A stretch of DNA of 32,000 bases, taken from Candidatus Heimdallarchaeota archaeon (GTDB lineage: Archaea > Asgardarchaeota > Heimdallarchaeia > JABLTI01). The stretch lies in contig JAUWKS010000033.1 of NCBI GenBank assembly GCA_030614005.1, positions 1-32,000 of the forward strand, given 5' to 3'. Positions 24,413 through 26,051 of this stretch are shown one piece after another (position 1 is the first letter of the stretch; the number at the start of each line of letters is the position of its first letter). Position numbers and translations under genes: made by a program. Under the pieces are notes generated by a model. It was not told the origin of the DNA. It saw nothing but the letters and a program-made list of their open reading frames with translations, and made no database searches.

Positions 24413-25585
24413 ATGAAAAAAATATCAACAATTAATACTTTGCTAGTATTTTTGGTTATAATTGGAACTGTTTTTGCAAATGTGAATGCAATAGTTTCAA
24501 TAATGCCAATAAATATAGTGGAAAGAGATGTGGAACGAGTAGACAATAAAACTACTATTAGTGATATAAACGAGTTTGATGTAAAGACATTGACAGAAAT
24601 TGCTGACTATATTAGTATTCAAGCAGCTCAAAATAATTTTGAGATTTCTGCTATGGTATATTCCTCAGGATTATTATTTGAATCTGACAACTCCCTAATA
24701 ATAATAGGTCATGGACATTTTAGTTCTAATGATCAATATTTTATTGCTGATTATTCAACAAATAGAATTAGCAAAATGGCTGAAAATAAAGAAGTGGTTG
24801 CTTTACTTGCTTGCTATTCCAATAATATTGGATTAGAAAATGACTTACAATTAACCTATGCAGATACAATCGATCTAATATCTGCGATACAAGATTTATT
24901 TAATCTACTAAGTTGGACAGAAAGCTCCCAACTTAATCCTATAAAGAATATACGACTTTTTGATTTGGATCCTGGACCCGGTGGATATGTTGAAGCAGTT
25001 TACTTGATGAATGGTGTAAGATATGCTCATTCCAGAAACAAGTTTTGGAATCTATATAGTGGACCTGCACGAGCAAATTTAGCAGCATACATGCAAAATA
25101 ATAAATATACACTTGTAGAATTAACCTTTTCTGGGATTTTTGCTGTTGAACAAGGAAGAAATACTGGTATATATGAATTAGAATACCATAAAGTTACTTA
25201 TGATACTTGGCTTACAATTGAAGGAGATACTAAAACGTATCTTAAAATTACTAATGTTAAACACAACGGAGTAAGAAAAAGAACAATGAATCGATTAATA
25301 AAACTTGATAAAGTAAATGCATTACTTGAAGCAAATTTCACTGGTGCTGGTCTTATAGGTTCTCTAGATCATCTCGGAGATATTTTCTTAGCTATTGGCA
25401 TTGCATTACTTACTTCGAGTACATTATTGATAATTGCTGCTAAGACTGCAACTTCTCTAGCTGCAGCAGTAACTGCTGCTTTGATTAAATTGGCTGCAGT
25501 AGCATTATGGTTTGCTGTTGCTTGCTTTGCTATTGCATTAATGCTTGCAATATCTTGTGTAATACTTCAACTCTGTTGGATTTAG
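24413..25585 (+). CDS. Secreted protein: signal peptide, clan CD-like His/Cys domain, DPGPGG linker, beta-rich region, long hydrophobic C-terminus (candidate toxin/archaeocin precursor)
   Basis: LIIIGHG (H100) and VVALLACYS (C134); DPGPGG at 186-191; residues 324-390 almost entirely apolar with no basic tail. The CDS is well supported; the function is inferred. Confidence 0.75.
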   Translation: MKKISTINTLLVFLVIIGTVFANVNAIVSIMPINIVERDVERVDNKTTISDINEFDVKTLTEIADYISIQAAQNNFEISAMVYSSGLLFESDNSLIIIGHGHFSSNDQYFIADYSTNRISKMAENKEVVALLACYSNNIGLENDLQLTYADTIDLISAIQDLFNLLSWTESSQLNPIKNIRLFDLDPGPGGYVEAVYLMNGVRYAHSRNKFWNLYSGPARANLAAYMQNNKYTLVELTFSGIFAVEQGRNTGIYELEYHKVTYDTWLTIEGDTKTYLKITNVKHNGVRKRTMNRLIKLDKVNALLEANFTGAGLIGSLDHLGDIFLAIGIALLTSSTLLIIAAKTATSLAAAVTAALIKLAAVALWFAVACFAIALMLAISCVILQLCWI

Positions 25586-25610
25586 AAAATAAAAAGGAGG
25601 AAATGTCAAT

Positions 25611-26051
25611 TTGAGTACTATAGCTAATGAACAAACAAAGTTACAAAAGAATGCATTTGTTGTTTACATGGTTTTAGCAATAAGTCAACTAATGCTTCTT
25701 ATACTTTCAGCGATTTTTCGAGCTATAACCAAGAAGCAATATCATGATGAACTTACAACACTAAATCATCAGTATTATTATAGCTTTACATTCTTCATGA
25801 ATCTTGCAACATATCTATTTTTCTTTGCAATGGTGATTTATTTCAGCTTTTTAAGTTCTAAAATTGAAAGTATAAAAAATGTTGATATAGATAAACTAGA
25901 TTTCGGAAATGCATTAGAAGAGATATTTAGACCTACAAGTCCAAAATTCAAACGAAGAAAGATTCTCTTAGTAATCGTTCTAGTACTTGCATTTCTAGTA
26001 ATGATATGTTCTCAAATCTATATACAAATTGGTATTGTGTTTATGTTGTAG
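25611..26051 (+). CDS. Small 3-TM membrane protein (candidate immunity partner)
   Basis: GGAGG at 25596-25600, TTG start, 25 nt after the upstream stop; three hydrophobic segments. Confidence 0.7.
   Translation: MSTIANEQTKLQKNAFVVYMVLAISQLMLLILSAIFRAITKKQYHDELTTLNHQYYYSFTFFMNLATYLFFFAMVIYFSFLSSKIESIKNVDIDKLDFGNALEEIFRPTSPKFKRRKILLVIVLVLAFLVMICSQIYIQIGIVFML

Follow-up and report, generated by a model that had tools for sequence, protein, structure and literature searches.

Do two neighbouring genes of a Heimdallarchaeia genome encode a membrane toxin and the protein that protects its producer, or do they encode a resident surface enzyme with its anchoring subunit? The question is raised by positions 24413 to 26051 of a 32,000-nucleotide (nt) stretch of DNA, hereafter the window (contig JAUWKS010000033.1, positions 1 to 32,000, of the Candidatus Heimdallarchaeota archaeon assembly GCA_030614005.1), where a gene for a protein of 390 amino acids (aa) (gene A; protein A, or P0001) is followed by a gene for a 146-aa membrane protein (gene B; the partner, or P0002). 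The original prediction, made from the letters of the window, saw here a secreted pore-forming archaeocin and its immunity protein. Both open reading frames (ORFs), the GGAGG ahead of gene B and the 25-nt gap that separates gene B from the stop codon of gene A (25583-25585) lie where that prediction had placed them. From comparison with related loci, we read the pair as a possible polymorphic effector/protector membrane module, similar to toxin-immunity systems, and put the probability of this reading at roughly 0.4.

Mosaic variation and gene pairing

When gene A is compared with three paralogs of the sister genome G010, the closest relative (loci L001-L003), nucleotide similarity stands at ~82% over the first 560 nt, close to the level of the flanking orthologous genes (83-89%), and ends at position 24975, within the codons of a conserved LDPG motif. 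The N-half of the protein is 72-80% identical to these paralogs, in contrast to 27-35% for the C-half and 23-27% for the partner. Just two columns of the alignment, L182 and G188, never vary (31/31 sequences); both lie at the junction, where D186 is retained in 29/31. Judging by these alignments the family is a mosaic jointed at the linker, with a conserved N-half and with a C-half and partner that diverge fast and together.

The types of C-half and partner group alike (window, L008 and L002; L001, L003 and L019; L009 and L020), and these groups cut across similarity in the N-half. Over 11 pairs the identity of the partners correlated with that of the C-halves (Mantel r 0.40, p 0.003), also when the N-half was controlled for (partial r 0.35, p 0.005), while partner and N-half showed no correlation once the C-half was controlled for (r 0.007). 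The test proposed with the original prediction, that the N-terminus should be conserved while the C-terminus and the downstream gene vary together, thus came out as predicted.

A gene of 128-168 aa lies directly downstream, on the same strand, of every large gene examined (14/14 loci). All these partners have three membrane segments and, in the loop before the third transmembrane (TM) segment, a motif of the E-x-x-x-P-T-x-x-x-x-K-x-R-K type, and they are 11-58% identical to P0002, the 58% being that of an orphan at L004. In gene B itself the hydrophobic segments fall at residues ~13-40, 58-83 and 112-146, as expected of the 3-TM protein that had been proposed. The pairing of the genes therefore stands: the small membrane neighbour, whose absence would have spoken against it, is present at all 14 loci.

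Partner genes also occur alone. At four related places they follow a complete pair (two at L004, one at L042 and one at L019). One of the two L004 orphans is N-truncated and is the closest relative of P0002 (58% aa identity), and the other is a full copy; at L019 the cassette promoter and leader are fused directly to the orphan gene. The window carries a remnant of a second partner, detected by a six-frame scan of the flanks with the partner-family hidden Markov model (HMM; E 1.8e-8, 24.8 bits), which keeps the last ~40 codons with the basic motif and TM3, followed by a stop. By contrast, no locus with the large gene only was found in 60 related genomes, save for one faint partial match in G023 that we read as a different protein. 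Since the large gene is 2.7x longer, neutral decay should leave more debris of it, not less. No other observation argues as strongly that the partner protects as this asymmetry in gene content.

Domain architecture of protein A

Protein A starts with an N-terminal hydrophobic stretch of ~20 residues. The original prediction called it a signal peptide, and the stretch is indeed there, with a cleaved peptide and an uncleaved signal anchor both possible. A first AlphaFold run with 7 sequences (predicted local distance difference test, pLDDT, 48; two long helices in the tail) was replaced by a model of the ectodomain built from 35 sequences (pLDDT 85, predicted template modelling score 0.82). In this model two domains, residues 45-184 and 194-322, are separated by a linker with pLDDT <50.

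The first domain carries a G99-H100-G101 motif and an A133-C134-x-S136 motif, of which GHG, C134 and S136 are invariant in 30/30 sequences that cover them. Clan CD peptidases are recognised by His-Gly followed by Ala-Cys, both placed behind hydrophobic strands, and in domain 1 the His and then the Cys each follow a hydrophobic beta-strand. The likeness to this clan (CHAT, caspase/metacaspase, legumain/GPI8, separase, gingipain, C80) extends to the His-Gly and Ala/Ser-Cys motifs, 34 residues apart, and to an alpha/beta core. Four independent results, each of them weak, are concordant on the CHAT/caspase/legumain type (clan CD). In an Atlas fold search with domain 1 a 192-aa CHAT cluster ranked first, if weakly; language-model features of the domain lay at 0.81-0.88 to DUF6345, DUF6642, CHAT, C80, C25 and DUF4347; and hhalign against 7 CHAT domains of the same class placed GHG onto GH(G/A) and LLACYS onto LSACETG (E 0.025 in a single comparison). 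Peptidase_C80 was touched by 1/35 family members (E 0.027), no member family of the clan (CHAT, C11, C13, C14, C25, C50, C80) was matched in Pfam at threshold, and Foldseek gave no significant match in PDB, AFDB clusters or Swiss-Prot. Because no Pfam model matched, we call the domain clan-CD-like and not a member of the clan. Sequence and model together point to domain 1 as a small clan-CD-like domain, similar to CHAT and caspases, whose His/Cys dyad is invariant. The original prediction had described the tail of gene A's product correctly and had overlooked this dyad.

The linker that follows is not a general linker of the window genome, in which LDPG-Gly has 2 matches against 1.4 expected. 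An unrelated surface-protein gene of G010 with a Big_7 domain (L001, 1-1294) shares its repeat-bearing leader and its start region with the cassette, and its product carries a VLDPGDSGNG motif directly behind the signal peptide. These sequences hint that leader and LDPG junction are reused by recombination.

Domain 2 is modelled as alpha+beta, and a search of the ESM Atlas with the C-half gave no usable match. In two related proteins, P0041 and P0044, domain 2, the hairpin and the partner are kept behind different N-terminal domains, and since these proteins carry other heads on them, domain 2, hairpin and partner form the constant core of the system. The heads (residues ~80-290 of P0041 and ~90-520 of P0044) consist of one or two copies of a ~230-aa domain without a Pfam match, which by eye resembles a concanavalin/LamG-type lectin domain; this likeness is an impression only.

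The composition of the last 67 residues is as had been reported, with 18 A, 13 L, 10 I, 2 K and 3 C in residues 324-390 and no basic tail. Its sequence is poorly conserved and its two-helix architecture is kept in every family member. The missing basic tail would be explained by a positively charged, Lys-bearing loop on the cytoplasmic side and a C-terminus that finishes on the outside. From its sequence this region looks like a membrane anchor rather than a free peptide: a hairpin kept throughout the family, and also under different heads, would suit an anchoring role no less than that of a peptide to be released.

Insertion scar, cassette signals and distribution

The original prediction had placed both genes inside a repeat-bounded insert, and the insert is real, with direct repeats at both edges and an empty site in five relatives. 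The last ~155 nt of an MFS transporter gene are duplicated at its edges (Table 1). In 5 genomes of this genus the SnoaL-like gene (26692-27165 in the window) comes ~170 bp behind the MFS gene, without the cassette in between, and this short distance identifies the segment at ~23950-26660 (~2.7 kb) as an insertion. In a four-way alignment of both window repeats with the MFS 3' end of G010 the two copies proved to be hybrids of opposite order: the left one matches G010 up to ~23835 (native-like) and is foreign-like past this point, and the right one is foreign-like in its proximal part and matches G010 in its distal part. On the evidence of the alignment, this arrangement is the trace left when the chromosome and a circular DNA with a homologous piece of the MFS 3' end recombine through a single crossover. 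As in integrase-borne integrative elements, the direct repeats restore the 3' end of the target gene; no integrase or recombinase was found inside the insert, where genes A and B, the sole ORFs of at least 70 aa, match no recombinase family and the remainder holds short ORFs and the partner-gene remnant.

In a closed genome from another family (L015 in G026), a distant cassette copy is flanked by a 300-nt direct repeat (88%; 223-522 and 2501-2800) that corresponds to the 3' end of a P-type ATPase gene, that is, the same type of scar in a different target gene. This scar is independent of that in the window. The cassette is also present in 4 metagenomes from 3 studies (cold seep and marine sediment), where the contigs break at the repeats. 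Taken together, the comparisons describe a mobile, patchy and multi-copy cassette which reached its place in the window by integrating at the MFS 3' end.

Table 1. Features of the cassette and its surroundings, in window coordinates
Feature	Position	Strand	Basis or remark
Left direct repeat, in-frame 3' end of the MFS transporter gene (22474-23952)	23772-23927	+	recurs at 26478-26618
Inverted repeat, 64 nt, left arm	24104-24167	.	72% complementary to right arm
Conserved upstream region of cassette	24170-24412	+	68-73% nt identity to upstream regions of the G010 cassette copies
TATA-like TTATATATA	24291-24299	+	in upstream region, followed by long leader
Leader tandem repeat, 14-15 nt, TTTTCTTCGAAAT-like, two copies	24373-24401	+	alignment
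Gene A (P0001)	24413-25585	+	ATG start, 390 aa, predicted exported hairpin-anchored protein
N-terminal signal peptide or signal anchor, residues 1-27	24413-24493	+	hydropathy; near-identical among paralogs
Domain 1, mini clan-CD-like alpha/beta, residues 45-184	24545-24964	+	model and conserved dyad
G99-H100-G101	24707-24715	+	after predicted strand 94-98
C134-x-S136 (A133-C134-x-S136)	24812-24820	+	after predicted strand 128-132
LDPG and Gly-rich linker, residues 185-193	24965-24991	+	form L-x-x-[LF]-D-P-G; best-conserved motif of the family; coincides with mosaic breakpoint
Domain 2, alpha+beta, residues 194-322	24992-25378	+	model; structural matches weak, none convincing
C-terminal hydrophobic region, residues 324-390	25382-25582	+	two predicted membrane helices, short variable Lys-bearing loop
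GGAGG ahead of gene B	25596-25600	+	read from sequence
Gene B (P0002)	25611-26051	+	TTG start, 146 aa, 3-TM partner
T-rich run 3' of gene B	26077-26095	+	read from sequence
Inverted repeat, 64 nt, right arm	26096-26159	.	overlaps start of partner-gene remnant
Second-partner remnant, last ~40 codons	26146-26268	+	partner-family HMM, six-frame flank scan
Right direct repeat, displaced MFS 3'-end copy	26478-26618	+	~82% identity to left copy

The conserved upstream region presumably acts as the promoter of the cassette. The tandem repeat in the leader varies in copy number, with 2 copies in the window, 1 in the strain recovered from sequencing run X2, 3 in L004 and L019, and 6.5 in L001, and may be a regulatory or slippage-prone element; at L001 (3041-3137) the gene caller read it as an N-terminal HESFL repeat. 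The T-rich run behind gene B likely marks the end of the operon, where it would serve as a terminator. Both arms of the 64-nt inverted repeat lie within the insert and flank genes A and B. A second strain keeps both genes unbroken and little changed (in gene A 5 non-synonymous and 3 synonymous differences, in gene B 3 and 3), numbers insufficient for a selection test, and a strain of run X2 has 15 nt that the right repeat copy of the window is without.

Comparison of the orthologous site in the closest relative (L022, G010:C22) with window positions 26630-27128 finds neither the cassette nor the SnoaL-like gene there, and in more distant members of the genus the SnoaL-like gene is present and the cassette absent.

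Word-based and exhaustive profile searches of 1.84 billion representatives returned 41 matches to the gene A family, none of them with a Pfam domain, and the names on the matches to the partner family are Candidatus Heimdallarchaeota or Heimdallarchaeaceae. On these matches the module is restricted to Heimdall-type Asgard archaea. The family occurs in 7/60 related genomes, with 6 divergent copies in G010, 2 in G005 and a single one in the window genome. Scans of P0001 and P0002 against Pfam, NCBIfam, PHROGs and PADLOC gave nothing usable, and a match of P0002 to the SAVED_TM model falls in a membrane helix and was taken as compositional. Searches of PDB sequences with the profiles found no match, and no description of the gene A family turned up in literature and library searches; the family is undescribed in the libraries and literature searched. 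Nor did any match support an S-layer protein, a phage holin or a transporter subunit of FtsX-like topology, which were also considered.

Several copies lie at contig ends or on very short contigs. One copy adjoins an Arf/Ras/Roc GTPase gene, another (L003, 2174-5791, in G010) a 611-aa AAA_15/AAA_23 ATPase gene and a 587-aa gene that may form a defence pair, and the L001 copy lies ~3 kb from a ParE-type toxin gene. With the GTPase neighbour and the names on the partner matches, the label Asgard-like of the original prediction is a reasonable one. At two loci the large gene is split with the partner intact (L005, 4771-5034 and 5001-5969; L010, 822-2019), through a frameshift in one and a TAA plus masked bases in the other; the L005 contig has ~4x coverage, and sequencing error is possible.

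Possible functions of the pair

If the two genes work as an effector/protector, that is toxin/immunity, pair, the variable C-half, domain 2 and hairpin, would be the membrane-acting or identity-bearing part, and the partner would bind the hairpin within the membrane and neutralise it in the producer. The cysteine-peptidase domain might cut at or near the LDPG linker, by which the C-half would be released or activated. Transfer could occur by contact, vesicles or membrane exchange, or the pair might act only in cis, as an addiction module.

The nearest general model is that of the polymorphic toxin-immunity systems (Zhang, de Souza, Anantharaman, Iyer and Aravind 2012, cited in PMC6393860). With them the family shares an exported protein with a conserved N-part and a short conserved motif at the switch to a variable C-part (here the 72-80% against 27-35% identity around the invariant L182 and G188), a small cognate gene immediately downstream that varies with the C-part (11 pairs, for which physical linkage is possible), and the accumulation of extra genes of the downstream type. 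Some polymorphic toxins have releasing peptidases ahead of the variable part, and a clan-CD-like domain holds this position in protein A. Unlike in those systems, the variable part is one homologous domain with a membrane hairpin and not a set of interchangeable toxin domains; the family lacks a recognised toxin fold, orphan toxin tips and any known apparatus for secretion or delivery, and protein A is no longer than 390 aa.

Pore-forming colicins of the E1/Ia type have a hydrophobic helical hairpin near the C-terminus and a 3-TM immunity protein that is encoded alongside and would act on this hairpin in the membrane. The pairing of a C-terminal hydrophobic hairpin with a small polytopic membrane protein is common to both. 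In contrast to colicins, the domain ahead of the hairpin is modelled as alpha+beta and not as a ten-helix bundle, the Sec-type N-terminus would lead to insertion in the producer membrane, and P0001 has no Pfam match to the colicin pore-forming domain.

Several results weigh against an effector/protector module. No homology to a known toxin, bacteriocin, halocin or immunity family was found in profile and PDB searches, and the C-half is one homologous domain throughout the family rather than a collection of unrelated toxin domains. A Sec-type N-terminus combined with a C-terminal hairpin should fix the protein in the membrane of its producer, with no delivery route evident. The same C-half and partner stand behind non-peptidase heads, as in ordinary modular surface proteins, and no orphan C-half fragments were found beside the orphan partners. 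The co-variation of C-half and partner could come from plain physical linkage, the 11 pairs being few and non-independent; it is clearer for the whole C-half, and the last 72 residues alone co-vary with the partner weakly and no better than domain 2. Empty-site, joined or circular forms were not seen in the contigs of the 4 metagenomes, and a complex prediction for C-half and partner scored 0.05, which gives no verdict and speaks neither for nor against binding.

Much of this would sit well with a resident surface enzyme, in which A is an anchored extracellular clan-CD-type cysteine peptidase or transpeptidase, B is a membrane subunit that stabilises or regulates the hairpin, no antagonism takes place, and membrane helices and surface-exposed domains vary because they are weakly constrained. 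The invariant dyad would argue for a working enzyme and the hairpin, conserved in architecture in all members, is anchor-like; heads, peptidase-like or other, are swapped above a shared stalk, hairpin and partner in the typical manner of surface proteins, of which other anchored ones are abundant in the window, and the second strain has kept both genes intact with few changes. Such an enzyme leaves unexplained, however, why partner genes occur alone with their own cassette promoter, why there are five partner-only places and zero large-only loci, why the linker forms a sharp breakpoint between an N-half at ortholog level and a highly diverged C-half and partner, and why the distribution is mobile, patchy and multi-copy. 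We regard it as possible and, on balance, doubtful; the effector/protector module fits better than a plain surface enzyme, though not decisively. The polymorphism would also suit a pair without a toxin, for self/non-self identity or adhesion, whose variable C-half and partner encode kin-recognition specificity, comparable to bacterial membrane identity pairs such as Proteus IdsD/IdsE and Myxococcus TraA. The pattern of polymorphism and co-variation, the membrane location of both proteins and the several divergent alleles in one genome agree with such a pair, whereas protection accounts better than identity for the orphan partners and the mobility, no such system is homologous to the pair, and an obvious role for the conserved dyad would be wanting. 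A recognition pair of this kind seems to us quite unlikely.

The original prediction had taken halocin C8 as its model, with the hydrophobic last ~67 residues cut off from a secreted precursor as a diffusible pore-forming archaeocin and gene B as immunity. A very hydrophobic tail rich in small residues, a candidate processing domain upstream and a small membrane partner are in keeping with it, and protein A resembles ProC8/HalI in being an archaeal exported precursor with a hydrophobic C-terminal region. Halocin C8 itself is exported by the Tat route as the precursor of a 76-aa Cys-rich peptide, and its immunity is provided by the N-terminal part of the same precursor (bioRxiv 10.64898/2026.07.27.741052). 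The likeness did not hold at the level of families: unlike the halocin, protein A matches neither TIGR04449 nor PF22862 (NCBIfam/Pfam, E up to 1). LDPG, the conserved candidate for cleavage, is not at the start of the tail but ~135 residues ahead of it, no conserved motif marks the boundary between domain 2 and tail, and the length and charge pattern of the tail are those of a two-helix hairpin that would insert in the producer. We give this reading little credence, and the diffusible peptide made of the last 67 residues is the least supported version of an antagonistic function. Going beyond the effector/protector module itself, one may picture the first polymorphic membrane toxin/immunity system of Asgard archaea, in which the peptidase would cleave its own protein at LDPG and so arm a variable hairpin-anchored effector, the effector would cross between cells by contact, protrusions or vesicles, cognate 3-TM proteins would protect kin, and small circular forms of the cassette would spread by recombining into gene 3' ends; in this complete form we think it improbable.

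The evolutionary pattern and the miniature clan-CD domain are real and unusual; the function is what we infer. Should the pair be merely a surface enzyme with an anchoring subunit, the result would be a modest annotation of an orphan family. Clan CD has among its eukaryotic relatives the caspases, separase, legumain and GPI transamidase, and domain 1, which is extracellular, tethered to the membrane and found in the archaea closest to eukaryotes, would be among the smallest modules of this type. If the insertion scars are any guide, small cassettes can move without a recombinase of their own. Almost nothing is known of how Asgard archaea compete with or recognise one another, they lack a genetic system, and cultures are very few; a compact cassette of two genes would offer a practical way into antagonism or recognition in this group, along with the predictions of allele-specific protection, self-cleavage at the conserved motif and contact of hairpin and partner in the membrane. 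If the effector/protector reading is true, it would bring the polymorphic toxin/immunity theme to a lineage in which none has been characterised.

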